A stretch of DNA of 64,000 nucleotides from Candidatus Dojkabacteria bacterium (GCA_026415655.1 JAOAGR010000002.1:131237-195236); one strand, 5' to 3'; shown: positions 9,419 to 42,590, counted from the first letter of the stretch. The notes: generated from the letters alone by a model not told the origin. Numbers and translations are program-made.

Positions 9419-11548
9419 ATGTATAAACTTGTTACTTTTTCTGTGGCTTTATTTGTTGTTTTTGCTACATTATATTTGAATCTTCCAAAGTTAAAAGTAT
9501 TATCACAAGAAAATAGCAATCTAAAAAGAATCTCTATAATAGAAATCAATTGGGCAGGCAGTAAAAAATCATCAAATGATGAATGGATAGTTCTTAAAAA
9601 TCTTACTGATGAAGATATAGACCTTACAGGATATAAAATTTTTGGAGTACGTCGTGGTGGGGGATATTTTGAATTGACAGGTGTCATAAGGGCGAATGAT
9701 ATATTTGTTGTTAGTAGATTTAATCAGGGTGATCCTAATACTGTAATGAGTGTAAATTCTAATTTCGTCAGCTCTTCTTTTTCTATTTCCAATGCCGCTT
9801 TAAACATAAAATTAGAAGATCCCAACGGCCAGATTGTGGATAGTGTAATAACTACGACAAAACCCAGAGTAGGGGATAATTCTTCTACTCCCGGTACGTA
9901 TTTTGCCATGAGTAGGATTAATCCATCTAACGATGGAGATGATCTAAATAATTGGCGTAATGCTGATAAAGTTTATGTTGTGAATATAGTTGAGGGGGAT
10001 GCTTGTAAAAATTATATTGGCTATTCTGAACTTATTGGCAAAGAATTTATTGATCCAGCCGATTTGTGCGAAGGAAATACTCTAACTCCAAACGAAGTAA
10101 TAAATTTAGAATTTTATACAACAGCTAATAGCCTAGAAATTCAAATCAACGGAAATACGTTGAATCATGATAATATAACAAATTTGCTTAGTGTGACAGT
10201 CAATAGTGTGGTTGGCAGTACGAATATTGCTGATGGTATAGACTATGTGAATGGAAGATATTTATCAGAAAATGCCAATGTCTTTGTATATCGTTTCAAC
10301 GACTATACAGGATCTGCATACTATAAGGTTTCTACTCAAATCAAAAATATCAGTAATTTCGAATATTTAATAGACAAATTGGATTTCTTTGTGGAAACAA
10401 ACGTAATTAATCAAAGACTTATAATAAATAAATTTAATATACATGACAATATCAACTATGTAAATAATCTGTTTAGTTTTGTGGGAAATGACGAATATAT
10501 TGAATCTATAACGCCAATCAACCGACTGATAAAAGATCAAAATTTAATTATTTATATCGACAATCTAAATCTAGAAAACTACAATTCGGGTTTTATAGAA
10601 ATTGGTAATCAAAGGATTCCATTAGTTCGGTTCCTAAATAACAATAGAGTGATATTGAATAACGTCAGTACAAATAAGCTAATTTTAGATATAAAACAGG
10701 ATGAATTAGTAAGTTTTAGTTCTATAAATATTGAATTAGTAGATCCAAATTATATCGGTGATTTACCTCTGGATATAAGTGAATACATAAATTCAGAGGT
10801 CACTACAGAAATTATTAACAACACCATTAAGTTTACGAATGAAAGTTATTCTCATATTTTAACCTTAGAAAAAAATAAAGTTTGTGATAGTTATTTCGTA
10901 AATATTTGTAATATCAGTTTAGTATTTAGGTTGGAAGAGAACACCATATCATCCGATCAAAATGTCCTGAAAATAAAGTATGGTAGAACCGATCATAGGG
11001 TGTTTAATGAAAAAATATTAAAATATAATGATTTTAATCAAAATCAGGTAGAAATCAGATTTTCGTTTACAGAAAATATAGATAAATTGCAAATCTATTC
11101 TTATAAGCCGGTTTATTTAATACAGTATCGTAAATTTTTATCAAATGAACTTAATAACATCTTCGAAACTGATTTGGAATCTGTGGAGATGTTAAACATA
11201 ACGCGTAATTATGAAAATTTTACTAATGAGATGAAATGTCAACCTGTTTATTTTGATATGTTATATTTAGCTCCAAACTCTTCTTATAAAATATCTATGA
11301 ATATAAATGGATTATCAAAATATAGAAATTATAGTTTAGTTAAGTTATATTTATTTGATCATCAAGGTAAAGTAATATTAGATGAAAAAATTACAGAAGG
11401 CGAACTAAGGGAGGGAAAACATGACATAGGACCGGTTCTGATTGATAGTAATTTGAGACCTTATATTTATTTAGCACAAATTTGTGATTATTCTAGTCAA
11501 AACCAACCTTATTGGAATAATATAGAAATTCAGTTTACAAAAAAATGA
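9419..11548 (+). CDS. Large secreted/membrane-anchored protein with an N-terminal lamin-tail-domain (LTD)-like region
   Basis: N-terminal TM helix, then ISIIEINWAGSKKSSNDEWIVLKNLTDEDIDLTGYKI, which resembles the LTD core (EINYNP...EWIELYN...DLSGW). The remaining ~550 aa have no recognisable domain. Confidence 0.55.
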   Translation: MYKLVTFSVALFVVFATLYLNLPKLKVLSQENSNLKRISIIEINWAGSKKSSNDEWIVLKNLTDEDIDLTGYKIFGVRRGGGYFELTGVIRANDIFVVSRFNQGDPNTVMSVNSNFVSSSFSISNAALNIKLEDPNGQIVDSVITTTKPRVGDNSSTPGTYFAMSRINPSNDGDDLNNWRNADKVYVVNIVEGDACKNYIGYSELIGKEFIDPADLCEGNTLTPNEVINLEFYTTANSLEIQINGNTLNHDNITNLLSVTVNSVVGSTNIADGIDYVNGRYLSENANVFVYRFNDYTGSAYYKVSTQIKNISNFEYLIDKLDFFVETNVINQRLIINKFNIHDNINYVNNLFSFVGNDEYIESITPINRLIKDQNLIIYIDNLNLENYNSGFIEIGNQRIPLVRFLNNNRVILNNVSTNKLILDIKQDELVSFSSINIELVDPNYIGDLPLDISEYINSEVTTEIINNTIKFTNESYSHILTLEKNKVCDSYFVNICNISLVFRLEENTISSDQNVLKIKYGRTDHRVFNEKILKYNDFNQNQVEIRFSFTENIDKLQIYSYKPVYLIQYRKFLSNELNNIFETDLESVEMLNITRNYENFTNEMKCQPVYFDMLYLAPNSSYKISMNINGLSKYRNYSLVKLYLFDHQGKVILDEKITEGELREGKHDIGPVLIDSNLRPYIYLAQICDYSSQNQPYWNNIEIQFTKK

Positions 11549-14862: not shown

Positions 14863-17800
14863 ATGGAAAATTCTAATTTTAGTAGCAAGCTGGCAAAAAT
14901 TTTTGTTAGCAATTTGCGATTTACATTTATTACTCTCATATTAATTGTTTTATTAGGAGTATATGCACTATTAAATCTTGTACCTACAGGGTTTCCACAG
15001 CCTAGAATTAATTTGATCAGTATAACAGCCACTTATCCAGGTGCTAATACTAATGTTGTATTGAACAATGTTACAATTCCTTTAGAAAGCGTTGTAACCA
15101 AATATTATTCCGATATAGATACATATTCATCAACTATTAACAATGGATTTACAAACATAATAGTAACACCTAAGTTTGGTGTAAATGCTGAAGAATTAAT
15201 TGCTAAGATTGAAAATGATGTGGAACAGCTTAACTTACCAGATGCAGTGGATGTTAGGGTTTCTAAGCCTGAGTTTCCTTCTGTAGATTTTGTGATCGCG
15301 ATTTTTTCTGAGAATAGGGAAGGTCTTTACATAAAATATAAAGAGTTTTTAAGACAAGCTAGATCAATGCCTGAAACTGATTTAGTAACTCCACAGGTGG
15401 ATCTAAAACAAATAGTTGATATTAGATTAGACGAATCAAAATTGAATCAGTATAGGATTAATGCTAATGACATAAAACAAGCAATATCAAATTACAAATT
15501 TAATATTCCTATAGCTCAAAATGTAACTATTGATAATTCTCAAACATCTTTTATTTTAGACAGTTCGGATATAGAAAATTTGGATCAATTGGCGAATGTT
15601 GTCATACGAACACAAAATAATCAGTTAGTAAGATTAAATGAAATCAGTGATATTACATATAAATATGTTTTTACAAATAGTGAATTTGCAAGTCTTGCTT
15701 TTGATGATAATCCAACATATTTTGGCTTTGTTCAAGGTGGCAAAAATTTAACAAAAGAATCAATACTTTTAAATTATTTCGCGGCTGAAGGAAACTCCAT
15801 AGAAGATGTACAAAATAAGATATCAAATTTACTTAAAGATTTAGGTATATCGAAAGTAGATCAAAACGAAGATATTTCTAATCAGAAAATTTATTTTGAA
15901 ATTCCATATTCAGCAAGTACTGTTTCTAAAAAGCAGATTGATGAAGTTGTAAATGGTCTTTTGCAGGGTGCGATTCTGGTTTTTTTGGTGATGTTCGTTT
16001 TTGTTTCTTGGAGAGCGGCAATTATTGCAACTTTTGGTATACCGATAAGCTTGATTTTTGCTTTAATTTACATATTTTTCACAGGTGATGAGTTGAATAC
16101 GTTGGTACTATTCTCTTTAGTATTGGTTGTTGGGTTAGTTGTAGACCCGGCATTGGTTATGTTAGAAGTTTTGCAGAGAAAGTTAGATTCGGGATTGAGC
16201 AAATTACAAGTAGTCATAGAATCAATAAAAGAGGTCGGCGATGGTCTTCTGGCATCAACAATAACGAATATAATAGTTTTTGTTCCATTTGCTGTTGTTT
16301 CTGGTGTGCTTGGTCAGATCTTTGGTTATATTCCTAAAACAATAATACCAGCAATTGTTGGCTCTTATGTTGTTTCAGTAGTATTTCTAGCAATATTTGG
16401 TGGAATGTTTCTTGCTAAACGCAGAAAGAAACAAAATGAACAAGTTGAGGACGAAGAATATGCGGCAATATGGCCAATTTCTAAAAAAATCGAAGCAATA
16501 AATAAATTTATTTTAAATTATCATAACAAAATTAAGAATAAATTTTTGGCAGGTTTGATACAAATTACAATCGTAATAGCTTCTATCATTGTGCCTCTAG
16601 CAATCGTGGGATATCTTTTTGGAACCGGTCAACTTAGATCAACCCAATTTGCTCAAAATAAAACTGGATCAACATTGAATATACTTTTAGAAAAACGTTC
16701 GGATATATCACCTGCAGAAATAAATCAATTCACCAAGCAAACTATAGAATTTATAGTAAGTACTGGTTTATTTGATAATGTAACGCCATTTAGTACACAG
16801 ATGATCGCATCACTCAAAAAAGATTATCAAAATACTGCACTAGAAAAGGCTCAGGATCTGAGAGAACTTCTTGTAAATAAATTTGGTGACAAATATCTTG
16901 ATATAAATGTCGTAGTAGGTGGGGGAGCTAATACAACAAATAGTTATCAAGTTAATCTTGCAATAAGATCAGATGATAATCAAAAGTTAATCGAATCATC
17001 AAGAATATTTGCGGAAAATATAAGGAAAAATCTTTGTCAAGATAATAAAAGCTTATACTGGGATGAAAATTGTGATGAACAAAATAGAGTAATTGAAAAA
17101 GTAGACAATGGGATCGATGGAAGATTACAAAATCAGATAAAGATTACTCTTGATATACAAAAAATATTAGAAAATAATCTAAGTATACCTGGTACTCCAG
17201 TATTTAGTCTTGTATTATCACAGTTACAAAGTCAATTTCCCAAATCTCGAATTACTAGTGTTTCTAATTTAAATAATATTAATGAAACAAAGGTATATAC
17301 GACTATTAATTTGGACGCAGATGTAAATTTGAAAACATTGGATGATGTCAAGAATATAAACATTGTCTCTCCACAAGGTGCTGTTTTAAAGTTAAGTGAT
17401 ATCGCAAATATCGAATTATCACAAATAAATCAGACCATAACTCGTTTTGAGGGCAAAACAGCTAATCGTATTAAAATAAGGCTAAAAGAAGAATTTAGGT
17501 TAGATCAGGCTTATGCATCTAGAGTGGCAAACTTTATTTTTCAGACATATGCAAAAGATAATTATAAATTGACAAAAGAATTGGGACTAGCAAATGAAGC
17601 AATCTACATCGATCGATCCGGTGCTAGCGCAGAATTTGTCAGAGGATTTACCGAACTTTTGACGGCTTTTGCATTAAGTATATTTTTGATATACGCAGTT
17701 TTAGTTGTTCTTTTCAAATCATTTTCTATGCCTGTTGTAGTTATATTTACTATTCCACTTTCATTTATTGGTGCATTTTTAGGAATAAAATATTTTGTTG

Positions 17801-18171
17801 GTCCAGAATTCGGATTTTTGGAAATTATAGGGCTTATTATACTTGTTGGTATAGTTGTAAACGTAGCTATATACATGATTGACCTAGCAAATCAAAAAGT
17901 AAAAGAAAATGGATGGGATGATAAAAAAGCAATTATCTATGCTTCTGCTGTGAGATTTAGACCAATATTTCTTACCACATTTACATCCATTACATCATTG
18001 ATACCTTTGTATATTAATAGTGATTTTTACAAATCTATCTCAGCAGTCATCATTGGAGGCTTATTTACTTCTACTATCATATCTCTTTTTGTTGTACCTG
18101 TGTTATATGTTTTGATCAATAAGTTGCGTAAAAAAATTCACAGGATATTTCATAGGTTTTCTTTAAGTTAA
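14863..18171 (+). CDS. RND-superfamily transporter permease (AcrB-like, 12-TM with two large periplasmic loops)
   Basis: 1102 aa. N-terminal TM followed by ATYPGANTNVV (compare the AcrB ATYPGAS region). Two TM bundles (residues ~365-520 and ~910-1090), each preceded by a ~300 aa periplasmic domain. GLVVD in TM4 (proton-relay Asp). Confidence 0.8.
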   Translation: MENSNFSSKLAKIFVSNLRFTFITLILIVLLGVYALLNLVPTGFPQPRINLISITATYPGANTNVVLNNVTIPLESVVTKYYSDIDTYSSTINNGFTNIIVTPKFGVNAEELIAKIENDVEQLNLPDAVDVRVSKPEFPSVDFVIAIFSENREGLYIKYKEFLRQARSMPETDLVTPQVDLKQIVDIRLDESKLNQYRINANDIKQAISNYKFNIPIAQNVTIDNSQTSFILDSSDIENLDQLANVVIRTQNNQLVRLNEISDITYKYVFTNSEFASLAFDDNPTYFGFVQGGKNLTKESILLNYFAAEGNSIEDVQNKISNLLKDLGISKVDQNEDISNQKIYFEIPYSASTVSKKQIDEVVNGLLQGAILVFLVMFVFVSWRAAIIATFGIPISLIFALIYIFFTGDELNTLVLFSLVLVVGLVVDPALVMLEVLQRKLDSGLSKLQVVIESIKEVGDGLLASTITNIIVFVPFAVVSGVLGQIFGYIPKTIIPAIVGSYVVSVVFLAIFGGMFLAKRRKKQNEQVEDEEYAAIWPISKKIEAINKFILNYHNKIKNKFLAGLIQITIVIASIIVPLAIVGYLFGTGQLRSTQFAQNKTGSTLNILLEKRSDISPAEINQFTKQTIEFIVSTGLFDNVTPFSTQMIASLKKDYQNTALEKAQDLRELLVNKFGDKYLDINVVVGGGANTTNSYQVNLAIRSDDNQKLIESSRIFAENIRKNLCQDNKSLYWDENCDEQNRVIEKVDNGIDGRLQNQIKITLDIQKILENNLSIPGTPVFSLVLSQLQSQFPKSRITSVSNLNNINETKVYTTINLDADVNLKTLDDVKNINIVSPQGAVLKLSDIANIELSQINQTITRFEGKTANRIKIRLKEEFRLDQAYASRVANFIFQTYAKDNYKLTKELGLANEAIYIDRSGASAEFVRGFTELLTAFALSIFLIYAVLVVLFKSFSMPVVVIFTIPLSFIGAFLGIKYFVGPEFGFLEIIGLIILVGIVVNVAIYMIDLANQKVKENGWDDKKAIIYASAVRFRPIFLTTFTSITSLIPLYINSDFYKSISAVIIGGLFTSTIISLFVVPVLYVLINKLRKKIHRIFHRFSLS

Positions 18172-18585: not shown

Positions 18586-19833
18586 TTATTCGTATCTTAA
18601 GGCATCAATCGGATTTAATTTGCTTGCTTTAATTGCTGGTAGCGTCCCGGCTAAAAATCCTATGATCATCATGAATGCATTAATTAGCAAAAGGAGTTGA
18701 ATATCAAAAACAAAAACTTGAAAGCCTTCTAGAGTTGTTTTGAATGTATTTACAAATAAAGAATTTAAACCATTACCTATTAGGATGCCCATAAAAATCC
18801 CCAATATACCACCCCATAATCCCAGTAAAATCGCTTCTATAGCGAATAATAAAAATATTTCAAAACTTGTCATACCAAGAGTTTTTAAGAGACCAATTTC
18901 ACGAGTTCTTTCGTATACACCCATTAGTATTGTATTTATGATGCCTATACTGCCAGCGATAATAACAATGAGAGCAAATGCATTCAAAATTAACTTTAGT
19001 ATATTTAGTACATTTCTAATTTCATTTACTGCTTCATCCCACGTTACTCCATTAAACCCTAGTTTTTTAAGCTCTTCTTTGGTATTTTTCATTGATTCTT
19101 CATCGTTTTTTTCAAGAATTCCAATAAGTTCAAAATTTCTTTTGTTATCACCATATAATTCCTCAGATAATTCTGTTATTTCTTGATAACTTAGTCTTGT
19201 TATACCTCCTGTCAATGAATTTATTAGGACACCTGAGATTTCATATTCTTTCTCAAAAATGTTGTTATCTTGTTTTTTATATCCGATTTTAATTTTTTTA
19301 CCTACAGCTTCTGATGCATTTGTAAAACCTAGAGGTGATAAATAATTGTAAGATAAAAGTATTTTGTCTTTTTCATCAGCTGAGGGAGTTTTGCCTGCAG
19401 CTAGAGGGATCTGTACCTCATCGATGATAGAACCTACAAGCTGTATTTCATATTTTTCGTTTGTGTTTTTATAAATATACTCTGGAAATAAATTATAAAG
19501 TTTATAGACTTTTTTGATATTTTTTATATTCTGAATTTTTTCTATATCTTCATCTAAAGTTTGTGATCTTGTTCTGTTGACTTTATTTTCAGGGTCGTAT
19601 TTTTTAACTTCAAGTGGATTGTTAGTAACCGTGATTGGTGTGATTCGTATTGTATTTTGTGAATTAATAGAATTCACCTGTGCGTTGACATAAGTTTGAA
19701 TCCCATCACTTAAAGCATTTGTTAAAGTCAATGTTAGAGTGCCTATCGATAAAGCCAATATCGTAAGGAAGCTTCGGAGTGGTGCTCTAAGCATGTTTTG
19801 TTGAGAAAGTTTTATTATATCTATTATTTTCAT
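18586..19833 (-). CDS. ABC transporter permease, MacB/FtsX family (periplasmic domain + 4 TM)
   Basis: N-terminal TM, ~230 aa extracytoplasmic domain, C-terminal FtsX-type 3-TM bundle ending ...LPAIKASKLNPIDALRYE. Overlaps the ATPase gene by 4 nt. Confidence 0.82.
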   Translation of the reverse strand: MKIIDIIKLSQQNMLRAPLRSFLTILALSIGTLTLTLTNALSDGIQTYVNAQVNSINSQNTIRITPITVTNNPLEVKKYDPENKVNRTRSQTLDEDIEKIQNIKNIKKVYKLYNLFPEYIYKNTNEKYEIQLVGSIIDEVQIPLAAGKTPSADEKDKILLSYNYLSPLGFTNASEAVGKKIKIGYKKQDNNIFEKEYEISGVLINSLTGGITRLSYQEITELSEELYGDNKRNFELIGILEKNDEESMKNTKEELKKLGFNGVTWDEAVNEIRNVLNILKLILNAFALIVIIAGSIGIINTILMGVYERTREIGLLKTLGMTSFEIFLLFAIEAILLGLWGGILGIFMGILIGNGLNSLFVNTFKTTLEGFQVFVFDIQLLLLINAFMMIIGFLAGTLPAIKASKLNPIDALRYE

Positions 19834-20516: not shown

Positions 20517-20567
20517 TTATTCCATTCATACATTGACGGAATTTGCTTAAATAAGTAAGATTTTTAT

Positions 20568-22778
20568 ATGTATAAAAATATTAGATTTTTCAAAAAATTT
20601 AAAAATATTTTTAACTCATTAAACCATAAAGCCTTTTTAATTTTTGTTTTATTGATAATTATTGTTTTGACTGCTACAACTGTGATATTTTTTGCTCGAG
20701 GTAAACAGTATACATATCATACAATTCCACCTATGCAAGACAAAGATAAGAATTTATCCGGTAATGACATGGATAACATAGATAACAATCGTAATAGTGA
20801 AGAGAATCAGCTAAAAAAAGAATTAGAAAAAAAGTTTATAGAAAAATTTGAAACTTATACTGGGTTAGATTGGGAGAAATACTATAAATTTTTGTCCAAT
20901 ACATCTTATATGCTTATAAATTCTTATTTATTTACGGGGGCAGGTGTGTTTCAAGATTCCGATTATACTAATGAAATTATTAGATTATTAAATTATCGTG
21001 ATTCTATTCATGATTATTTCGCACTAAAAAAAACTAATTCAAATCAATTTCGTTATACAAGTTGTAAATTGGAAAGTGTTGATAGGTTAACGATATTGGA
21101 TATGCCGGTTAAAGATTATAATTATTTGTTAAATTATGCACATAATGTTCCTTATATTAATGATTTTAAGGAAGGACTCGAAACAGACTATGCATCCTCA
21201 AATAAATTAGAGCAAATTTTAGGTTCTAATGCTAATTTCAAAGTATTGTCTGGAGTTAATAATTCAATTAATTATGCAAAAGCTGTTTTGTATTCTCTAG
21301 ATTCAACTCAAAGATATACTGTTAATTCAATCAATTTTTATGGTTCAACATATGATCCTTTTAGTGTGAATTATACGGTCGATAAGTATGTGGATGGCCA
21401 TTTTGAGGCTGCGGAATTTTTTAGAGGTAATTATTATTTTTGGTTTAATAGTCCAGAATTAAAATTTGAAATTCAGGATAATAATTATGTACTGATTTAC
21501 GATAAGAATGAAGACTTTTTAAAGGTAAATTACATCTTTGATAGTAATTTTGATCTGAAACAAGTGAATTTAATTGTGCAAAATTCAAACGATCGAGATG
21601 AAAGAATAATTATGTCGGTATCCTGTAATCATGATGTAGTCTCGTTTGATGAAATAAAGACAAAATTTAACCAGATATATTCACAGCTGGAAAATCAGAC
21701 CAATTTCAGATCATATAATTTTGATAATCTTGATGAGGTCAAATATTATAATTTGTCTGAGGTAGTATCAGAATTTCCATTTATTTCAATTAATGATAAT
21801 CCGTTTTTATATCAATTTAATAAAAATAATACCAAGTATGATAAATATTTAGGGGACATTTATAATATACAACTTAAAGGATCGAGAATAAGTCCAATAA
21901 AAATTTCAGAGTCTTCTTCTTTGTATATAAATTCAATAGATTATTCCATATCGTACAACCCAAATGGTGTTGGTTTAATGAACAGTTGTGGTACTTATAC
22001 GTTGTTTTTGGAAGGTTTCGGGAATATAGAGTTGGAATGTAACAAGTTGCATATAGAATTAAGTGAAGAATATAAAAATAGATTGATTAGTGAAAATAAA
22101 AGTTTTCATAGTTATAGGATTAAAACTGATATAAGTAAGAGATTTGGATACCAACCTGCCAATATATACATATACCCAAAATCATATGAAGCTCAAAAGA
22201 AATTAGAAGAAAGAAAGATAAGGTTAAAATTATTAAATACAAATGAGGTTAAAAATTTGGATGAAAAATATAGAAATATAATAATTCATCTATACAATGC
22301 AAATAGAAATCTAGTTTTTAATAATATATCTAAGGAAGAATTAAGGACGAATGTAATATTAAAAAATGATTTTAATACATCCTTTAGTAAACTTTTGGAA
22401 CCTAATGATAAACAAAAAAACTGCTATGCATTTTTTGATAATGTAAATAAATTTGATGTAAAATTGTTTAATGTATTAGAAATTCAAGATATTGAAAGAT
22501 ATTTTCTAAAGTGTGCAACGGGTATATCTAATGGTTATCAAATGATATTACAATATAAAGACAATGATGAGGATTTTTTTGATGTATATGTTATTTACTC
22601 AAATGAATACGTAGAAAAAATTGTCAATTTTTATGTAAATTCTGATTTATACAAAAAAGACCAAAAAATAAGGGGAATGCAATATAAGAAACTTGGTGAT
22701 ATGTATATATTTATATACAGCGACAAAGCAAAAGAAAAGGTAACTGAGGTGTTAAATGATATTCAATTAGTAGAATAG
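20568..22778 (+). CDS. Large type-II membrane-anchored hypothetical protein
   Basis: 736 aa with an N-terminal signal-anchor (AFLIFVLLIIIVLTATTVIFFA). C-terminal region carries a Cys-bracketed motif (SCGTYTLFLEGFGNIELECNKLH) also seen in 23301..25949 and 26529..27335. No known catalytic motif. Confidence 0.6.
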   Translation: MYKNIRFFKKFKNIFNSLNHKAFLIFVLLIIIVLTATTVIFFARGKQYTYHTIPPMQDKDKNLSGNDMDNIDNNRNSEENQLKKELEKKFIEKFETYTGLDWEKYYKFLSNTSYMLINSYLFTGAGVFQDSDYTNEIIRLLNYRDSIHDYFALKKTNSNQFRYTSCKLESVDRLTILDMPVKDYNYLLNYAHNVPYINDFKEGLETDYASSNKLEQILGSNANFKVLSGVNNSINYAKAVLYSLDSTQRYTVNSINFYGSTYDPFSVNYTVDKYVDGHFEAAEFFRGNYYFWFNSPELKFEIQDNNYVLIYDKNEDFLKVNYIFDSNFDLKQVNLIVQNSNDRDERIIMSVSCNHDVVSFDEIKTKFNQIYSQLENQTNFRSYNFDNLDEVKYYNLSEVVSEFPFISINDNPFLYQFNKNNTKYDKYLGDIYNIQLKGSRISPIKISESSSLYINSIDYSISYNPNGVGLMNSCGTYTLFLEGFGNIELECNKLHIELSEEYKNRLISENKSFHSYRIKTDISKRFGYQPANIYIYPKSYEAQKKLEERKIRLKLLNTNEVKNLDEKYRNIIIHLYNANRNLVFNNISKEELRTNVILKNDFNTSFSKLLEPNDKQKNCYAFFDNVNKFDVKLFNVLEIQDIERYFLKCATGISNGYQMILQYKDNDEDFFDVYVIYSNEYVEKIVNFYVNSDLYKKDQKIRGMQYKKLGDMYIFIYSDKAKEKVTEVLNDIQLVE

Positions 22779-22807
22779 TATAGTTATGAATGTAATTTGA
22801 TTGGATA

Positions 22808-23326
22808 ATGAATAAATCTTTTGAAAAATTCTACGAAGAAACCTTTAAAGAAGCTTACAGATATCTCTATATGCGAATTAACAACGTGAGTGACGTGGAA
22901 GATATACTGCATGACGCGTATTTAGTAATTTACGAAAGCTATAAAGATAAATTAGATAGTAATGAAAGTAAAAAAATATTGTTTGGTATTCTTCAAAAGA
23001 AATATGTAGATTATATTAGACTAAAATATAGAGAATATGAAAATATAGAGTATATTGACAATTATGCAGGGGAACAAAACAATGTGATTTCGCATTTGGA
23101 CTTAGCCCAATTAGAAGACAAGCTGAGGGATTATATTTATAAATTAGAAAAAAAGTATCCCAAATTGATGATTATCCTTAGAATGAGACTTTTGGATAAA
23201 CTTAGCAGAAGAGAAATCGCAGAAGTCTTAAATATTACTGAAGATCATGTTCATACCTACCAAAAGAGAGCTATAGCAATAATAAAAAAAATTATTACAA
23301 ATGAAAAAGATGATGAAAATAAATAA
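22808..23326 (+). CDS. ECF-type RNA polymerase sigma factor (sigma-70 family, group 4)
   Basis: Region 2 (DVEDILHDAYLVIYESY) and region 4 helix-turn-helix (LSRREIAEVLNITEDHVHTYQKRAIAIIKK). Length 172 aa. Confidence 0.78.
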   Translation: MNKSFEKFYEETFKEAYRYLYMRINNVSDVEDILHDAYLVIYESYKDKLDSNESKKILFGILQKKYVDYIRLKYREYENIEYIDNYAGEQNNVISHLDLAQLEDKLRDYIYKLEKKYPKLMIILRMRLLDKLSRREIAEVLNITEDHVHTYQKRAIAIIKKIITNEKDDENK

Positions 23327-25949
23327 AGATAAAAAATTGTACCCCCAAGACGATATATATAGTGAAATGGATCAAGTTGATCAAAAAATTGAAGAAATTC
23401 TCACATCTGCTTTGGTAACCGTGCCGGCAGATGAGGATATATTATCTGCGCAGATAAGGGTAAAAAATCAGCTTGTCCATTCGATAAATAGAAAAGCTAT
23501 GGATCAAAAAAATTTTGTAGCTCAAGTTTTTCCTGAAGAAGGAGCGGCTACACAAAACGATAATATTCAGACTTCTCAAACAAAGCCCAATGCATTTATG
23601 AATCTTTTTCATAATAAACCATTTGTTATATTTTCTACATTGACATTGATAACTATTGTCACATTATCAGGGATAGGTATTTATTACTTAAACACAACAA
23701 AAAATAATCAAGATACATCTACGGAATTTGTAAATAGAGCAAATAAAAGTGGGGATATTGTTACCCTGGCAAAGGAAAGATTTAAACAATTATATGGAAT
23801 TGAATATGATGACTATGTAAAAGTAGCATCATCAATAGATGCATCATCGAATCCTAAAGAAGGGTTAAAATCAATGCTAGCTTCAACAGGACGAACAAAC
23901 CAAAGAATGATCATGGCACAAGAACGACCAGAGGTACAAAATATCTTGGATAATGTTAATACAACACAAAATAAAGGGGTTTTATATAGGTATACCGTAG
24001 AAATGAACAAGGCAGACTATACGAAGTATACGGATGTGTATATCCCCACAGATACTGCTTATTTTGGTCTACATGATTTTATCCGTTATCCGGAGGCGAA
24101 TTATGAATATTATATGTCTTTGCATTCCACAGGTACTGTTGTCAGGAGAGGTAAAGATATTCTATATGCCACCGTATCAGATGTTTCCGCTCAGGGTAAT
24201 AGCTATCATGTGCGGTCATTAGAATACAGAAATGGCAAACTTGCATTAGAAGGCAACTATATACATCCAAAGGGATTCTATGAAGAACAGAATATTTCGT
24301 ACATCCAATTTACTCCTGATTATATACTGTTACAAAAATTAGAAAGTAAAGATGAAAACATAAAAGATTTAGGAGTAAAAGATATTGATGGAGTACAATA
24401 TAGGATTATTGAAGAAAGTATTAACGTTTTGGGACCAGTATATTCTCCACCTCCACCCGCAGAGAACACGGAACAGGAAGAGTCAATTGTTTATCCAACG
24501 GGACCTGAGATTATCATTAGAAAAACGTATTATATAAATCCAAATAGTCTACAGATAGTAAAAACAGAATTTAGTGAAGATAATGATTTATTATTCTCTA
24601 TAAAATATGAAGAACACAAGATAATCGATAATACTTATATTCAAAATAATTATAATGAAGTAAAAGATTCTATCCGAAAATTAGATAAAGAAATCAAGAC
24701 ATTTGACTTTGGTGCAGTATATGATATTAAAGCTTATCCTAAATTAGCAGATTTTGTGAAAAAATATCCTGTATTCACTATTGATACTGATGGAAGGGAG
24801 AGATTCAATTTCTATGATAACGATAGTGAACAGGCTAGACTTTATAATGAGTACTTTAGATTGTATTCGTCACAAGATTTTGACCCATCTTATGAAAGCT
24901 CCGGCGAGGCCTTGGTTGTAGATGAAGGTTCTCTTGCTCATTTTGGATCGATGCGTCTTGGGATCGAGTATTATAAGTCGGGTCAAAAGAGATCAAACAT
25001 AGTATGTACTGGTAAAAAGTCCACAATCAACATAGATGGTATTGGTCAATTTGAGGCTGAGGTGTGTAAATATTCGTATGATGATGTAATGACAATTCAA
25101 ATGGAAGAAGGTTCTACGTCTCCAAACAATTCCCTGTTACCAGTTGAAAACGCAGATGTAGTATATAAATTATCCCAAAAGATAGGCTCGTATCCACCAT
25201 ACGATATCTACATATCATTTGGTGGATTGCAAAACGATAACTGGACTGTTAATTACATAAATGAGCAAAAGGCAAAACAATATGATGATGAGATTAGACA
25301 AATTATAACTATGGAGACTGTCATGTACGGTGGTCAGATTGACCAGTCAAAAATCTCCGGATTTATAGCAACACCGGTAGAATTTGTAAAAAAAGAAAAT
25401 TATCAGGTATATACTCAAACATTTAGTGCGCCATATTATGGTAAGGAAGAAACATGCGTCATACCGTTGCAAAATGCGAAAAAAAATCCAGATTTGTTGG
25501 AATATCTTTATATGCAACATAAATTTGTACTAGATTGTATCGCACTAATAGCAGATGGTTATATGCTAAGTTATCATGCATCATTGAGCCCAGAGATGTA
25601 TGAAATTCCAACCGTTAATGAGATTGGTGAATCCAGCCCTGTTGCTAAAAACGTTCAAGTAGCACAGTCAAGTTTTGATGTATATATCTTCGAAAAAACA
25701 GATTTTACATATTCGGCTTTGGAGTTTTATATAAATTATTTAAAAAATAAATCTGAAGATGAGACTCTTATTCCGGTTTATAAGGAAGTTAATGGATATA
25801 TTGTAGTGATAGTTAACTCTGTTTTTGGACCATACGATCTAGCTGATGATATCGTTGGAAGTAGAAGGAGACTACTAGAAAATATACGCCTATTAAGCGA
25901 ACAAGAGAAAAAGCAATTCTTTGATATGCTTAATGAGCAATCTAAATAA
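23301..25949 (+). CDS. Putative anti-sigma factor: ~110 aa cytoplasmic N-terminus, single TM, ~750 aa extracytoplasmic domain
   Basis: Overlaps the ECF sigma gene by 26 nt. TM at ~aa 108-130 (FVIFSTLTLITIVTLSGIGIYYL). C-terminal Cys-bracketed motif (VCTGKKSTINIDGIGQFEAEVC) shared with neighbouring proteins. Confidence 0.55.
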   Translation: MKKMMKINKDKKLYPQDDIYSEMDQVDQKIEEILTSALVTVPADEDILSAQIRVKNQLVHSINRKAMDQKNFVAQVFPEEGAATQNDNIQTSQTKPNAFMNLFHNKPFVIFSTLTLITIVTLSGIGIYYLNTTKNNQDTSTEFVNRANKSGDIVTLAKERFKQLYGIEYDDYVKVASSIDASSNPKEGLKSMLASTGRTNQRMIMAQERPEVQNILDNVNTTQNKGVLYRYTVEMNKADYTKYTDVYIPTDTAYFGLHDFIRYPEANYEYYMSLHSTGTVVRRGKDILYATVSDVSAQGNSYHVRSLEYRNGKLALEGNYIHPKGFYEEQNISYIQFTPDYILLQKLESKDENIKDLGVKDIDGVQYRIIEESINVLGPVYSPPPPAENTEQEESIVYPTGPEIIIRKTYYINPNSLQIVKTEFSEDNDLLFSIKYEEHKIIDNTYIQNNYNEVKDSIRKLDKEIKTFDFGAVYDIKAYPKLADFVKKYPVFTIDTDGRERFNFYDNDSEQARLYNEYFRLYSSQDFDPSYESSGEALVVDEGSLAHFGSMRLGIEYYKSGQKRSNIVCTGKKSTINIDGIGQFEAEVCKYSYDDVMTIQMEEGSTSPNNSLLPVENADVVYKLSQKIGSYPPYDIYISFGGLQNDNWTVNYINEQKAKQYDDEIRQIITMETVMYGGQIDQSKISGFIATPVEFVKKENYQVYTQTFSAPYYGKEETCVIPLQNAKKNPDLLEYLYMQHKFVLDCIALIADGYMLSYHASLSPEMYEIPTVNEIGESSPVAKNVQVAQSSFDVYIFEKTDFTYSALEFYINYLKNKSEDETLIPVYKEVNGYIVVIVNSVFGPYDLADDIVGSRRRLLENIRLLSEQEKKQFFDMLNEQSK

Positions 25950-25967
25950 TTAAATTAAAAATTCATT

Positions 25968-26369
25968 ATGGAAAGAATAAAATTAAATCAAATGAACAAA
26001 AAATCAATATTTTTAGCAATTGGATTACTGGCTATTTTGGCTATTGGATCAATTATTCTCTATTTATCTTTTTTACAAAATCAAAGTTCATCAGGGGTAG
26101 TATCCGAAAACACCGAATCTGGCAAAATAGATGAAACGAGTGATTCTATTGATGCCAAGCAGACACCGTTTTCGGAATTAGAGAAAACTGATTTTGAGAT
26201 TGATTCGAATCTACGAACAGTGGAAGGTATAAAAGATAATATCTTAAATTATATTTTCGGTGATGAAGAGTTCAGAAATGAGAATTTTTATAGTCTGATG
26301 TCTGATACGATTAATCTAGCATTAATAAATAAGTATGATATTAATGCTTTTGTCCCTCGTTTTGATTGA
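25968..26369 (+). CDS. Type-II membrane-anchored hypothetical protein. Probably the N-terminal part of a single gene continuing into 26529..27335 across an in-frame TGA.
   Basis: 133 aa with an N-terminal TM (IFLAIGLLAILAIGSIILYLSF). Its TGA stop (26367-26369) is followed by 53 stop-free codons in the same frame leading into the next ORF. Confidence 0.5.
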   Translation: MERIKLNQMNKKSIFLAIGLLAILAIGSIILYLSFLQNQSSSGVVSENTESGKIDETSDSIDAKQTPFSELEKTDFEIDSNLRTVEGIKDNILNYIFGDEEFRNENFYSLMSDTINLALINKYDINAFVPRFD

Positions 26370-26528
26370 GCAAAGAAAATAGATGTAACAAATTATGAAA
26401 GAAATTTCATTGAAATAAATTATACTGTTAAGGAAACTAATAGTACTAATTTCAAGTTTAGATGTACACAAGTTTTAAATGTATATTTAATAGCAAATAT
26501 ATGTAAAGACTCAAATGATCGCATTAAT

Positions 26529-27335
26529 TTGGAGAAAAGTGCCCTTCATTTTGTGAAAAAAGCTTCAGACCAGATTAATTATAAATTTGTACAACGAATA
26601 AATGAAAATAATGATAACTACGGATATAAATATATGATTTATCAGTATCCATATTATAATGTTGCACTTTACAATATTTTTCAAGAATATGCTTATATTT
26701 ATGAAAATATTGATGAAGCACTAATAGATAATACTGGGAACAAATTTGTTGTAATGGTAAATATTGATGATGTGCAAATTGTTTACGATCATCCCAAGTT
26801 ATTTGAAAGCAATAATGAAGAAGCGGAGAGATATTTTGATATGATAATAAATGAAATATCAGAACAACAATCTATTGTAAAGGTTGAGGAAAATTATATT
26901 TTTAATATTGATGAATTTGTAAATATGTATCCTGTTTTGGTTCCACAAGGTAAATTTAAAGAATTTGCGTATTTCAGTAATTATAAAATGGGGGTTGCAA
27001 ATATGAATTATGGAGATTCTACCACTATCAGGATTATTCTTGAATTCTACAAGTACGGTAGTCAAGGAAATGAGAATGTAAATTGTTCAGATGAAAACGG
27101 TACAAAACAAATAATTATCGAAGGAAAATCATTTAACGCCAATGTATGTCGAGGTGATAGAATAGCTGGTAATGTAGTAAAGCTTACCAATGTAAAAGGT
27201 TATGATATTTATGTTCAGGCTGTTGATTATTCAATGAATCCTGAAGATAACTCAGTGGATATCATGCCAAGAGAATTTCGCTTTATGACCGCAGATGAAT
27301 CGCCTAAATATGAAATGAAAGTGCAACAATCATAA
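26529..27335 (+). CDS. Hypothetical secreted-domain protein (TTG start as called; same frame as 25968..26369)
   Basis: 268 aa with no signal peptide of its own. Carries a Cys-bracketed motif (NCSDENGTKQIIIEGKSFNANVC) similar to the two larger neighbours. Confidence 0.5.
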   Translation: MEKSALHFVKKASDQINYKFVQRINENNDNYGYKYMIYQYPYYNVALYNIFQEYAYIYENIDEALIDNTGNKFVVMVNIDDVQIVYDHPKLFESNNEEAERYFDMIINEISEQQSIVKVEENYIFNIDEFVNMYPVLVPQGKFKEFAYFSNYKMGVANMNYGDSTTIRIILEFYKYGSQGNENVNCSDENGTKQIIIEGKSFNANVCRGDRIAGNVVKLTNVKGYDIYVQAVDYSMNPEDNSVDIMPREFRFMTADESPKYEMKVQQS

Positions 27336-27354: not shown

Positions 27355-27392
27355 AATAAAAAGGCAGGATTTATTCCTGCCTTTTGTTTGTT
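27355..27392. terminator. Bidirectional rho-independent terminator between convergent genes
   Basis: aaaaAGGCAGGatttattCCTGCCTtttgttt: a 7-bp GC-rich stem flanked by A-run and T-run. Sits between the 26529..27335 (+) and ilvE (-) ends. Confidence 0.7.
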
Positions 27393-29465: not shown

Positions 29466-30015
29466 TAGATAGAATTCTTAATTTAAAAGGATTATCTATA
29501 TATTCAATATAATAATTTTAGAATTTTGAAATGATATACTTTTAATAAGATCAGAAAAATGAACTGATATAAGGTTGCTATTTAACTCTAGAGTGAAGTA
29601 TTGAAGGAGAGGGTTGTATCTTACAGAATATTATTGAGAATATTTTTGTTAAACAAGGTGAATTTCGATATTAAAAGGTTAGGTGCTAATGCATCATGGT
29701 AATGGTAAACACCTTATAGTTATTAATTATCCAATTTTCATAAATAGATTATAGACTTAATGTAATTCGACAATGGGGAATAATATGATTTTTATAAGAC
29801 GTTCCAAAATTATGGGTTGCCAATAACGATCTTAATATATAGTTTGCATCCAAAAAAGACTAAATGATTCTGTTTCCTGGTGATAAACGTGGATTATAAT
29901 ACACAAAATTACTTTATGCGTTAATATTTACGAATTTATTAGTACTGATGTGGTTTGAATCAATTAATTGTGGACATTTTAATATTGTAAATTTTATTAA
30001 AAGTGCTAAACTACA

Positions 30016-31399
30016 TTGATGTCGAATGATAACTACGTTAATCAAATAGTTTCACAGCTACAAGCTGGCATTCCAGAGCAACAAATCTACAACAACCTAA
30101 TAGCTAGTGGAATTTCAAATGATGCAGCCATAAATTTGTTGAATAATGCCAAATATTTGATGTCTTCCATCCAAAATTCGTCTCCTCAGGGATCATCGGG
30201 TCAGTTTAATTCTAATTTTCAGAATAGTGTTCCTAATATGCAATATTCTGGACAACCAGGTCCTAGTCCTGTGAATTTTATGTCGCCTAATTTACAACCT
30301 AATAACCACATTCCAAATAACATTAATTATCCATTGGAAAGCATGAGTTCAAATACTGCAGGAGGATTTGGTATGAATATGCTAATAGTTGGACTTTTGA
30401 TTTTTGGAGTTTTGCTGTCTTTTGTCTCATATCTTGGACTGGCGTTTCCAAACCTAGATTTAAATGGATTTGAACTGTCAAAATTTTTTTGGTTGGTTGG
30501 TGTCTTATCATTAGTATTATTTATCATTCCCTCCGCAATTTTGTTATTCGTTAATAAAAATAAAATATCTAATTTTTTAGTTGTGGTAATAAGTGTGTTT
30601 TTGTCGATGTTTTTGGTACTTGCAAATACAGGTGCTGGGGCATTTTTGTCATTTAGAGATTCTTCTGCACAAAATCAAGAGAACAACACTAATTTGTCTA
30701 AGAATGATGATGAAAAGACGCAAAAAGAGAAAAAAGACGATCAAAAGTCTAACCCTTCACCAACAAATACTCCAAAAAAAAACTCCAACATTCACTCCCA
30801 CTCCTACTCCTACAGCGAGACTTACACCTACGAGAACAGCTCCAATACCAACTCAAGGTCCTGACTATCAAGAATATTTAAATTACTTAGAAAACAATAC
30901 TTATCGTTATACTAATACACAAAATAGATTTTCTTTGAGGATTCTCAATACTTTAAGAAAAGTGTTTACAGATAATACCGATCCTAATAATTACTCAGAA
31001 ACATTTGGTTCTTCTGACGGTAATACATCTTTATCAATTATATATGGTAAAAATCAAAATAATTCCAATGATTTTAGAAATGTATATAGTTTATTGAATG
31101 ATATTGAAGATTCAATAAAATCATCAAATAAGAATCTTGGTGTTACTTGTAATGTTCAAGATGTAAAAGTAGAATATGTTGTTTGTCAGTATGTTACGAC
31201 TCTTCCAAATGGAAAGTATGCATATGTGGTTCAAACTGTTATACCAGATCAGAGAGATTATTCAGGTATTGTTGTGTTGACCGGACTTTTTTTGATACAA
31301 AATCCAGAAGCAGCGGAGAATTTGTTCAATGAAGAAAAATTTGCTTTATTTATAATAAGTATAGGGGTTTATTCAGCTTATACCATTGAATTTAATTGA
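30016..31399 (+). CDS. Membrane/surface protein split by a +1 frameshift at an A9 tract (30774-30782). N/Q-rich N-terminus, TM helices, Pro/Thr linker, C-terminal globular domain.
   Basis: Track ORFs 30016..30864 and 30593..31399. The PT-rich linker ...SPTNTPKK continues as TPTFTPTPTPTARLTPTRT... only in the +1 frame after the A9 run. An A8 allele would give one continuous ~465 aa protein. Confidence 0.6.
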
Positions 31400-33395: not shown

Positions 33396-34037
33396 ATGGA
33401 GAATACCACAAATAGTAATTCAGAAGTTAGTATCAATAACAAAGATAGAAGCAAACTTCCACTTCTAATAACCACAATTATTTCTATTTCTACATTAGTT
33501 ATAATTATATTTTTTAGTTTTTTACCTAATCTTGTAAAGATGCCATTAACAAAATATAAATTAGTATTTGCAGTGATTGTTGAGAAATTTCAAGATGTTG
33601 AGAATGTTCAATATAATTATGTTTATTCTTTAAACAAAGTTAGAATAAGCAAAAATCAATATAAAATAAAAATTTCAAATCAAAGAGGCGAGGATATAAA
33701 TACTGTAAGGCAGTTTTTTTCTACAACTAGGAAATATTATATGTATGACTTTAAATTGGGAAATATGAAAGAAATAAATTTAGATGATGCTTTATCGATG
33801 GCTTATTATATGAATCAAAATTTTGGCTTTACTCATAATGTAAGTGCACTTTGTGATGATTCGCCCGATGGGTATAAGTTGGAAAGTGTGGGTAATTATG
33901 ATTTCCCAGATTATAAAGTCAAACCAGAATTGATGGATTACCAAGATGAGGACAAAGGATTGTACATAAAAAATTTTTTTGTTCGACATAAGTTTTATGA
34001 TGGATATATGTCCGAATGTTTTGGCTGGACACTATAG
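33396..34037 (+). CDS. Type-II membrane-anchored hypothetical protein
   Basis: 213 aa with a signal-anchor (LPLLITTIISISTLVIIIFFSFL) followed by a Cys-containing extracytoplasmic domain. Confidence 0.55.
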   Translation: MENTTNSNSEVSINNKDRSKLPLLITTIISISTLVIIIFFSFLPNLVKMPLTKYKLVFAVIVEKFQDVENVQYNYVYSLNKVRISKNQYKIKISNQRGEDINTVRQFFSTTRKYYMYDFKLGNMKEINLDDALSMAYYMNQNFGFTHNVSALCDDSPDGYKLESVGNYDFPDYKVKPELMDYQDEDKGLYIKNFFVRHKFYDGYMSECFGWTL

Positions 34038-41483: not shown

Positions 41484-42590
41484 TTACTTTAGGTATGCGA
41501 CTAAATTTTGTTCTAATCCTTTTTCTTTTAGTTTTCTTATAGCTTTTGCTTCAATTTGTCTTATACGTTCTCTTGTTACATTAAATTCTGCCCCTACTTC
41601 TTCTAAAGTTCTTTGCACACCATCATTTAGTCCAAATCTTAGTTCTATTACTTTTCGCTCACGATCTGATAGTTCACTAAGTGCTTTTTCTAGTTCGTTT
41701 TTTAAGTTCGTGTACTCAGCATAGTCATGAGGGGTTGTTGTGTTTTTGTCAGCTATTATTTCTGCGAGAGATGATGAATTATCATCACCTATGGCCATTT
41801 GTAAAGATGATGGATTTTGAGAGATAGTTTTTATTTCGATTACCTTTTCAACATCAATTCCCATCTCCTTGGCGATCTCTTCTTCTGTTGGTTGTCTTTG
41901 GAGTTTTACAGCAAGTTGTGAGACAATTTTATTAAAGGTATTAATGGTTTCTATCATATGTACAGGGATACGTATAGTACGAGCTTGATCGGCAATAGCT
42001 CTTGAGATTGCCTGTTTTATCCACCACGATGCATATGTCGAAAATTTGTAACCTTTTTTGTAATTAAATTTTTCTACGGCTCTCATAAGCCCGACATTTC
42101 CCTCTTGGATAAGATCTAAAAGATCTAGTCCTCTTTTGTCATATTTTTTGGCATTACTTACAACTAGCCTCAAGTTTGCTGTTATCAAAAACTGGGCGGC
42201 TTCTTGATCTCCCTCTTCTTTTCTTTTGGCTAGTATCACTTCTTCTTCTGCAGTAAGTAGTGGTATACGTCCTATTTCCTGTAAATAGGCTCTGATAGGA
42301 TCTGTCGCGATATTTGCTTGTATGCTCCTAAAAATCTTAATTTTATCCTCAAGAGTCATTGTATTTTCTGGTACTTCCTCAGGTTTTACACTTTCGTCTA
42401 TTCCTGTGATTTCGATGTGATTATGATAAAACTCGTAGATTATATCCTCGACTAAATCAATATGGGCTTCCGGATCCGGTAAGATTTCTAAAAATTGATT
42501 AACATTTATAAATCCTTGAGTCTTGGCAATATTTAGAATTGTATTATATATTTTTTCCTCTTTTTGTTTCTTGCGTTCCATAGTTATCAA
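41484..42590 (-). CDS. rpoD: RNA polymerase primary sigma factor (sigma-70)
   Basis: Region 2 with the -10 recognition helix ([19 protein letters not shown]), region 3, and region 4.2 HTH ([28 protein letters not shown]). Length 368 aa. Confidence 0.92.

Follow-up and report, generated by a model that had tools for sequence, protein, structure and literature searches.

An extracytoplasmic function (ECF) sigma factor gene followed by a gene for an uncharacterised single-pass membrane protein is a common bacterial architecture. In the Bacillus subtilis pairs SigW-RsiW, SigX-RsiX and SigV-RsiV, the sigma factor is freed when its anti-sigma partner undergoes regulated proteolysis; CnrY, by comparison, is a protein of ~95 amino acids (aa) without a large ectodomain, and the clostridial SigI-RsgI systems comprise several paralogous membrane anti-sigma factors with large and varied extracellular sensing domains. 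ECF anti-sigma factors resemble one another little in sequence and are grouped in three or more structural classes, with new classes still emerging (PMC6101532), and the class II domain is a two-helix clamp around sigma-2 and sigma-4 (PMC6101532). Here we describe a locus at positions 20568-27335 (+ strand) of a 64,000-nt stretch of DNA (the window) filed under Candidatus Dojkabacteria bacterium, which holds four genes or open reading frame (ORF) groups in the order A-sigma-B-C: an ECF sigma factor gene and three genes for membrane proteins (Table 1). An earlier note on this stretch had described it as a sigma/anti-sigma module set among three large secreted proteins that share a Cys-bracketed motif. 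The reading to which we lean, slightly rather than strongly, is that of one operon in which A, B and C are remote surface paralogues and B serves as the membrane partner of the sigma factor.

All positions are those of the window, and ORFs were read under the bacterial code, which reproduced the coordinates reported before for A, the sigma gene and B as well as the 26-nt overlap of the latter two. The distances between the four genes are 29, -26 and 18 nt, and their order is kept on every contig that covers the cassette, including those of relatives with 65-71% identity. The divergent intergenic region 5' of A is 51 nt long and holds a candidate sigma-70-like promoter, TTGACG-17-TAAGAT, both hexamers of which are kept in the 65%-identity relative L001. 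Its -10 element stops 6 nt upstream of the ATG of A, a gene that lacks a visible Shine-Dalgarno sequence, and thus the operon mRNA may be leaderless. The hairpin beyond C, the sole strong terminator-like structure of the unit, is the probable end of the operon. Judging from the gaps, the promoter-like site and the terminator, A, sigma, B and C would be co-transcribed, and the region is a probable lineage-restricted operon of four genes.

By its sequence, the 172-aa product of the second gene is a genuine ECF (group 4) sigma factor, as the earlier note had called it. The protein scored 46.6 bits against TIGR02937 (cutoff 42.9) over residues 4-162, aligned over its full length to the SigX and BldN models (E 4e-16 to 4e-14) and reached 24.9 against a cutoff of 24.1 for Pfam Sigma70_r4, with Pfam Sigma70_r2 not reported at E<=1. 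The nearest solved chain was B. subtilis SigW (5wuq, E 8.8e-5, sigma residues 15-158), and the FecI model, with its cutoff of 260 bits, reached no more than 23.9. A search of the literature on ECF sigma or anti-sigma factors in Saccharibacteria, Dojkabacteria and the candidate phyla radiation (CPR) found nothing relevant.

The three other proteins each contain a single hydrophobic segment, in agreement with the single-transmembrane architecture described before. Basic residues stand on the N-terminal side of this segment in A and C, and the N-terminus of B is hydrophilic; we therefore infer an N-in, single-pass (type II) topology for all three, with the bulk of each protein outside. Their cysteines (six in A, four in B, four in C) are even in number, lie exclusively in the ectodomains and are conserved in orthologues, those of B being invariant at 569, 589, 719 and 746. 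This pattern fits disulfide-bonded extracytoplasmic domains, and the large ectodomains, ~750 aa in the case of B, are probably of that kind. No domain was found in A, B or C with either Pfam or NCBIfam, so that the earlier statement that they carry no known domain stands.

B differs from its neighbours in its cytoplasmic tail, which measures ~106 aa compared with ~13 aa in A, ~10 aa in C and 28 aa in a distant homologue of B, P0008. Together with the transmembrane segment, this tail is the best-conserved part of the protein: residues 1-70 are 80 and 73% identical to those of two orthologues, the transmembrane segment 100 and 88%, and the C-terminus 58 and 51%. B also shows the genomic signature of an anti-sigma factor, since it lies directly downstream of an ECF sigma gene and is predicted to be an N-in single-pass protein. 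Its 26-nt overlap with the sigma gene is kept in L001 and in all sister strains, and the operon contains no gene besides B that could be another candidate partner of sigma. Wherever they are visible, in six strain or species lineages altogether (on L002 the sigma gene lies off the contig), sigma and B are both intact, and A or C is broken in five. Two amphipathic helices, at residues 16-38 and 46-73, are predicted for the N-terminus of B in a model of very low confidence there (predicted local distance difference test, pLDDT, ~25-30), the AlphaFold2 model of full-length B having a pLDDT of 29.7. Taken from this context, the anti-sigma role of B appears to us somewhat better founded than its denial. 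The 'classic anti-sigma architecture' ascribed to B is thus present as far as the overlap, the cytoplasmic N-terminus and the single N-in transmembrane segment are concerned, but it is not accompanied by a match to any known anti-sigma family.

Among the described systems, the locus comes closest to the SigW-RsiW type. The sigma factor aligns best to SigX, BldN and SigW, and the product of the overlapping downstream gene is an N-in single-pass protein whose N-terminus of ~100 aa lies in the cytoplasm and whose C-terminal domain is extracytoplasmic. In contrast to that type, however, B has neither a zf-HC2 or other class I signal nor the HxxxCxxC motif; its ectodomain of ~750 aa is paralogous to the products of two neighbour genes; and the operon opens with the paralogue A, not with sigma. 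The co-transcription of A and C (as read from the layout), which have no cytoplasmic domain, the loss-prone, fast evolution of the cassette and its confinement to a few CPR genomes are further differences. Searches of Pfam, NCBIfam and the PDB found in B no class I anti-sigma domain (that of zf-HC2 proteins, RsiW, RskA, ChrR and RseA), nor the resemblance of its N-terminus to the RskA/ChrR type for which the earlier note had suggested looking. Instead of a three-helix bundle with a fourth helix, the low-confidence model predicts two helices. Two amphipathic helices in a short cytoplasmic segment ahead of the transmembrane segment are also what would liken B, at the same low confidence, to the class II factors CnrY and NepR, to which no sequence similarity was found. 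With SigI-RsgI the locus shares paralogous membrane proteins with large extracellular domains, but the sigma factor here is an ECF one, there is no RsgI_N (PF12791) hit, and A and C have neither a cytoplasmic domain nor a sigma factor of their own. The likeness to FecI-FecR is limited to the combination of an ECF sigma factor with a single-pass membrane regulator; B gave no FecR (PF04773) hit and no TonB-dependent transducer was found among the annotated neighbours. Of the co-regulated cell-surface signalling cassette proposed before, the layout as one transcription unit (gaps, promoter-like site, single strong terminator) is supported, and signalling in the FecIR sense is not.

The ectodomains of A, B and C appear to be related to each other. 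In a joint alignment of the three families, the same blocks follow in the same order: a 'FVKKYPV'-like block, 'xIxYYxxG', a Cys hairpin, 'GYxxDIYI' and an acidic helix-like block. In B this region runs through the 'FVKKYPV' block, an 'IEYYKSG' strand, the Cys hairpin and a 'YDIYIS' strand, and its residues 466-660 have their counterpart in residues ~299-455 of C and ~386-575 of A. The homology of B and C is secure at the level of sequence profiles: hhalign aligned B 482-590 with C 314-395, a span that takes in both the 'FVKKYPV' block and the Cys hairpin, at E 5.7e-5, and with the transmembrane segments left out the score was 46.3 against 16.9±2.7 for column shuffles (0/80, about 11 standard deviations). 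For A and B, hhalign returned three weak, collinear hits, of which the top one scored 29.6 against 17.8±2.7 and the collinear chain 73.6 against 20.1±7.9, neither being reached in any of 60 shuffles. Permissive Smith-Waterman alignment gave z 5.6 for the two ectodomains and, for the C-terminal halves, a score reached in none of 5000 shuffles; 21 unrelated proteins of the window served as the control and gave z of at most 3.2. The four cysteines of B are moreover collinear with A 474, 491, 619 and 649, and the spacings (20/130/27 in B, 17/128/30 in A) are matched by random placement in 1.6e-4 of trials. On these sequence comparisons, we regard homology of A and B as quite likely. The homology of A and C would hold through B only: direct Smith-Waterman alignment of the two gave z 2.6, inside the control range, and a combined B+C profile met A at residues 456-569 with P 0.0016, single-sequence A against the B or the B+C profile being not significant (P 0.26-0.35). 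As judged from collinear blocks and significant profile-profile similarity, A, B and C form one ectodomain family and are remote paralogues that share a homologous region. No further paralogue was found in the window when the B and B+C profiles were compared by hhalign with all ORFs of at least 150 aa.

The Cys-bracketed motif from which this relationship had first been suspected can be located at A 473-491, B 568-589 and C 372-394 and belongs to a real, remote shared domain; its literal pattern, however, fits B alone strictly, and its E/D-G pair is not conserved in the B and C orthologues. The similarity expected among the three C-terminal regions was likewise found in part, being significant by profiles and shuffles for B-C and A-B but not directly for A-C, and not by plain pairwise alignment (BLASTP E 0.28 for A-B, 0.02 for B-C and 0.06 for A-C, the last at a different place). 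Cross-family hmmsearch among A, B and C was not significant. A model of the shared domain around the Cys-bracketed segment, built from a seven-sequence alignment of the three families, was of low confidence (pLDDT 53, predicted template modelling score 0.42); β-strands flank both cysteines in it, and Foldseek found nothing below E 0.6 in the PDB.

The region 25968-27335, taken earlier for one protein, turned out to be discontinuous, as an in-frame TGA breaks the reading frame of C. TGA terminates 14 of the 46 long ORFs in the window, and reading it as sense yields short read-through tails only. The genome thus uses the standard code and the TGA in C is a real stop; a recoded TGA or an alternative genetic code was rejected on these grounds and because sister strains have TTA at the same codon, which makes the TGA a strain-specific nonsense mutation. 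Intact C orthologues of 435 or 455 aa are P0005, P0016 and the C of L007.

We compared the window with contigs of other sequencing runs that are 99.85-99.96% identical to it over 4-18 kb. The four near-identical strain lineages differ in the lesion that inactivates A or C: C is hit in the lineage of the window, in L005 and in L006 with L009, A in L007 with L008 (Table 1). This strain-level inactivation is new beyond the earlier note. In L001, a species with 65% identity, two stops and two frameshifts interrupt A and one frameshift C; C is intact in the species with 71% identity. The remaining strain differences include N492K and K493E in A, directly after Cys491 (codons 492/493, nt 22041-22046, occur as the three alleles NK, NE and KE), F5S in sigma, and Q418H, S560L (in the 'YYKSG' block), G678V, A788V and an in-frame Val insertion in B. 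Altogether, the 6.8 kb of the operon hold 13 events, one of them synonymous, compared with two coding events, one synonymous, in ~12.5 kb of flanking housekeeping coding sequence; 13 of 15 coding events inside the operon correspond to a binomial p of ~6e-5, calculated by hand, if events spread evenly along the DNA. Across species, identity is 62-72% for the proteins of the operon and 84-92% for their neighbours. The operon is a hot spot of change at both the strain and the species level and evolves several times faster than its neighbours, which fits exposed proteins involved in contact with some partner outside the cell, such as a host cell or a phage.

Outside the surface-protein genes, the same comparison showed one non-synonymous difference, at 15779 (F to S in L007) in the AcrB-like gene 14863-18171. 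A further variable gene lies at 30016-31399. Sister strains carry it as one gene, whose 459-aa membrane-protein product contains a low-complexity linker and matches no Pfam domain. The window's copy falls into two overlapping ORFs, as its A tract at ~30766-30774 is A9 where L005 and L006 have A8. The L005 copy has six non-synonymous and no synonymous differences in 380 nt (30966-31344), and positions 30010-30011, just 5' of the gene start, also differ. This is possibly a second, phase-variable gene for a hypervariable surface protein.

In the mechanism that we favour, B would have gained its conserved ~106-aa cytoplasmic extension with two predicted amphipathic helices, which A and C did not, and would keep sigma at the membrane through this N-terminal domain. 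A signal from outside, received at the ~750-aa ectodomain, would then free sigma, the probable means being regulated proteolysis of the kind that other single-pass anti-sigma factors undergo. A and C would be accessory surface paralogues, co-transcribed, dispensable, and repeatedly lost or altered in nature. Several observations weigh against this proposal. The N-terminus of B matched none of the Pfam families zf-HC2, RskA, FecR and RsgI_N; the isolated N-termini of three B orthologues gave no anti-sigma hit in Pfam or NCBIfam to E<=10, and neither phmmer nor a profile search turned up a solved anti-sigma chain in the PDB at E<=10. HxxxCxxC is absent, residues 1-106 having no cysteine at all. 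The sole PDB match was to GCN4 coiled-coil adaptors: helix 1 of B (residues 17-38, nt 23349-23414, MDQVDQKIEEILTSAL) resembles the engineered GCN4 pII adaptor MKQIEDKIEEILSKI with a profile E of 6.5e-5 (7oaa and others), which points to a heptad-type amphipathic helix and not to homology. Overlapping genes are frequent in the window (boundaries 5806, 12969, 19830-19833 and 34016-34037), and since such overlaps are common in this compact genome, that of sigma and B is by itself weak evidence. The sole conserved promoter-like element is sigma-70-like, and no ECF-type (AAC...CGT-like), autoregulated promoter was seen by eye upstream of A or sigma, two sequences being too few for a motif search. 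On the side of the ectodomains, the similarity of A and B fails BLASTP, HMMER and single-sequence hhalign, and the structure models (pLDDT 29.7 and 53) are too poor for any fold test. Much of this would suit a B that is a mere surface protein, for example an adhesin, encoded after the sigma gene: such a protein need match no known anti-sigma family, its N-terminal helices, the first of them GCN4-like, would form a coiled coil for oligomerisation or cytoplasmic anchoring, the overlap would be one of many, and sigma, with no obvious ECF autoregulation, would be controlled otherwise, by transcription, phosphorylation or an unlinked partner. We consider this unlikely, though by no means far-fetched. 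The missing sequence match is weak evidence against a role of B, given the low similarity among ECF anti-sigma factors and the new structural classes still being found (PMC6101532). B is, besides, the sole paralogue with a cytoplasmic domain, which is its most conserved soluble part; sigma and B are jointly intact wherever both are visible, whereas A and C decay; and the operon offers sigma no other candidate partner.

Two further explanations would undo other parts of the proposal. If the shared motif were a chance or compositional resemblance of three unrelated membrane proteins encoded by AT-rich DNA, the failure of BLASTP and cross-family hmmsearch, the A-C score within the controls and the non-significant comparison of single-sequence A with the profiles would all be expected; the B-C profile match about 11 standard deviations above column shuffles, an A-B chain unmatched in 60 shuffles and C-terminal halves unmatched in 5000, the collinearity of all four B cysteines with A (p ~1.6e-4) and the further blocks that follow in like order in three families make such a coincidence highly improbable. 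The stops and frameshifts in A and C could, on the other hand, be errors of assembly or sequencing, with all four genes functional everywhere. The comparison sequences are metagenome assemblies, the L007 contig has only ~3.8x k-mer coverage, and the frameshift in A sits in an A7 tract. Yet of the three C lesions one is a T-to-G substitution and the other two each delete one base outside any homopolymer, the same lesions recur in independent runs (L006/L009 and L007/L008), the other 10-11 kb compared per strain contain one further indel only, the A8/A9 tract, and in L001, which is more distant, A is interrupted by several stops and frameshifts. Errors on this scale seem improbable to us.

Table 1. 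Features of the A-sigma-B-C locus, with positions in the 64,000-nt window unless a contig is named.
Feature	Position (nt)	Strand	Remarks
Sigma-70-like promoter candidate	20533-20561	+	TTGACG-17-TAAGAT; predicted by consensus scan
Gene A	20568-22778	+	ORF, 736 aa; predicted type II membrane protein
Transmembrane segment of A	20607-20705	+	residues 14-46; single hydrophobic segment
Cys hairpin of A	21987-22040	+	C474-C491; direct reading
Lesion, L007 and L008	22414	+	in A; 1-nt deletion in A7 tract; C intact, 455 aa
ECF (group 4) sigma gene	22808-23326	+	172 aa
Gene B	23301-25949	+	ORF, 882 aa; candidate anti-sigma factor/sensor
Cytoplasmic N-terminal domain of B	23301-23618	+	residues 1-106; hydrophilic, ahead of the transmembrane segment
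Transmembrane segment of B	23619-23684	+	residues 107-128; single hydrophobic segment
Shared ectodomain region of B	24696-25280	+	residues 466-660; profile comparison, multi-family alignment
Cys hairpin of B	25005-25067	+	C569-C589; within the shared region
Gene C	25968-27335	+	455 codons with a nonsense codon inside; predicted type II membrane protein gene
Transmembrane segment of C	25998-26081	+	residues 11-38; single hydrophobic segment
Lesion, L005	26123	+	in C; 1-nt deletion; A intact
Nonsense codon in C	26367-26369	+	in-frame TGA; TTA (Leu) in sister strains
Lesion, window lineage	26368	+	in C; TTA to TGA, the nonsense codon of the preceding row; A intact
Lesion, L006 and L009	26539	+	in C; 1-nt deletion; A intact
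Cys hairpin of C	27084-27149	+	C373-C394; from the translation
Intrinsic-terminator-like hairpin	27359-27385	bidirectional	11-bp stem; between C and the convergent aminotransferase gene
P0008	L004 165-1445		426 aa; sole distant homologue of B

In the NCBI database, identical proteins are MCX8034862-64 (locus tags N3A71_01055-65) of a Candidatus Dojkabacteria metagenome-assembled genome, annotated as hypothetical proteins and a sigma-70 family sigma factor. The labels are in conflict, as the closest species-level genome is filed as uncultured Candidatus Saccharibacteria; under either label, the host chromosome is one of the CPR/Patescibacteria. The operon lies among core genes (ThrRS, GlyRS, enolase, RpoD, DnaE, LepA and Rho). 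Three other genes of the window, for which no link to the operon was found, encode a 709-aa protein with a Lamin Tail Domain (9419-11548), the housekeeping sigma factor (41484-42590) and a 785-aa histidine kinase with HisKA and HATPase_c (55095-57452).

The A/B/C family is confined to a few close CPR genomes. A word-indexed search of 5.8 billion clustered proteins returned close orthologues only: two other clusters for B (71% and 65% identity), itself only for A, and three for C. When 1.84 billion representatives were searched exhaustively in HMMER with the B profile, a single protein was gained, P0008 (E 6e-7); a scan of GTDB representative genomes found L001/L003 alone, and scans of JGI metagenomes with the sigma alignment and with an alignment of the N-terminal half of B found nothing. 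P0008 matches the transmembrane segment and, of the B ectodomain, the N-terminal half with its 'RFxxLxGIxYDxY' and 'FxxKYPV' blocks; a Cys-hairpin half is missing from it, which suggests that the ectodomain is modular. No sigma gene was present in the 164 nt upstream of P0008 on its short contig.

Genomes of the CPR/Patescibacteria are very small and encode few regulators. As an ECF sigma gene followed by a single-pass membrane protein is widespread, the interest of the cassette rests on this setting and on the parallel inactivation and diversification, not on the architecture. A more specific scenario, doubtful as it is at present, would be that in a CPR organism, probably a symbiont, one member of a hypervariable, lineage-specific surface family has been wired to gene expression through a new two-helix anti-sigma domain unrelated in sequence to classes I-III, and that populations switch off A or C by independent mutations under pressure from hosts, phages or other outside partners. 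That A or C has been lost in parallel may be read as a signal of natural selection, and the cassette makes a concrete candidate for a module by which these bacteria interact or sense. Should B bind sigma, a further sequence class of anti-sigma domain would be represented by its N-terminus.

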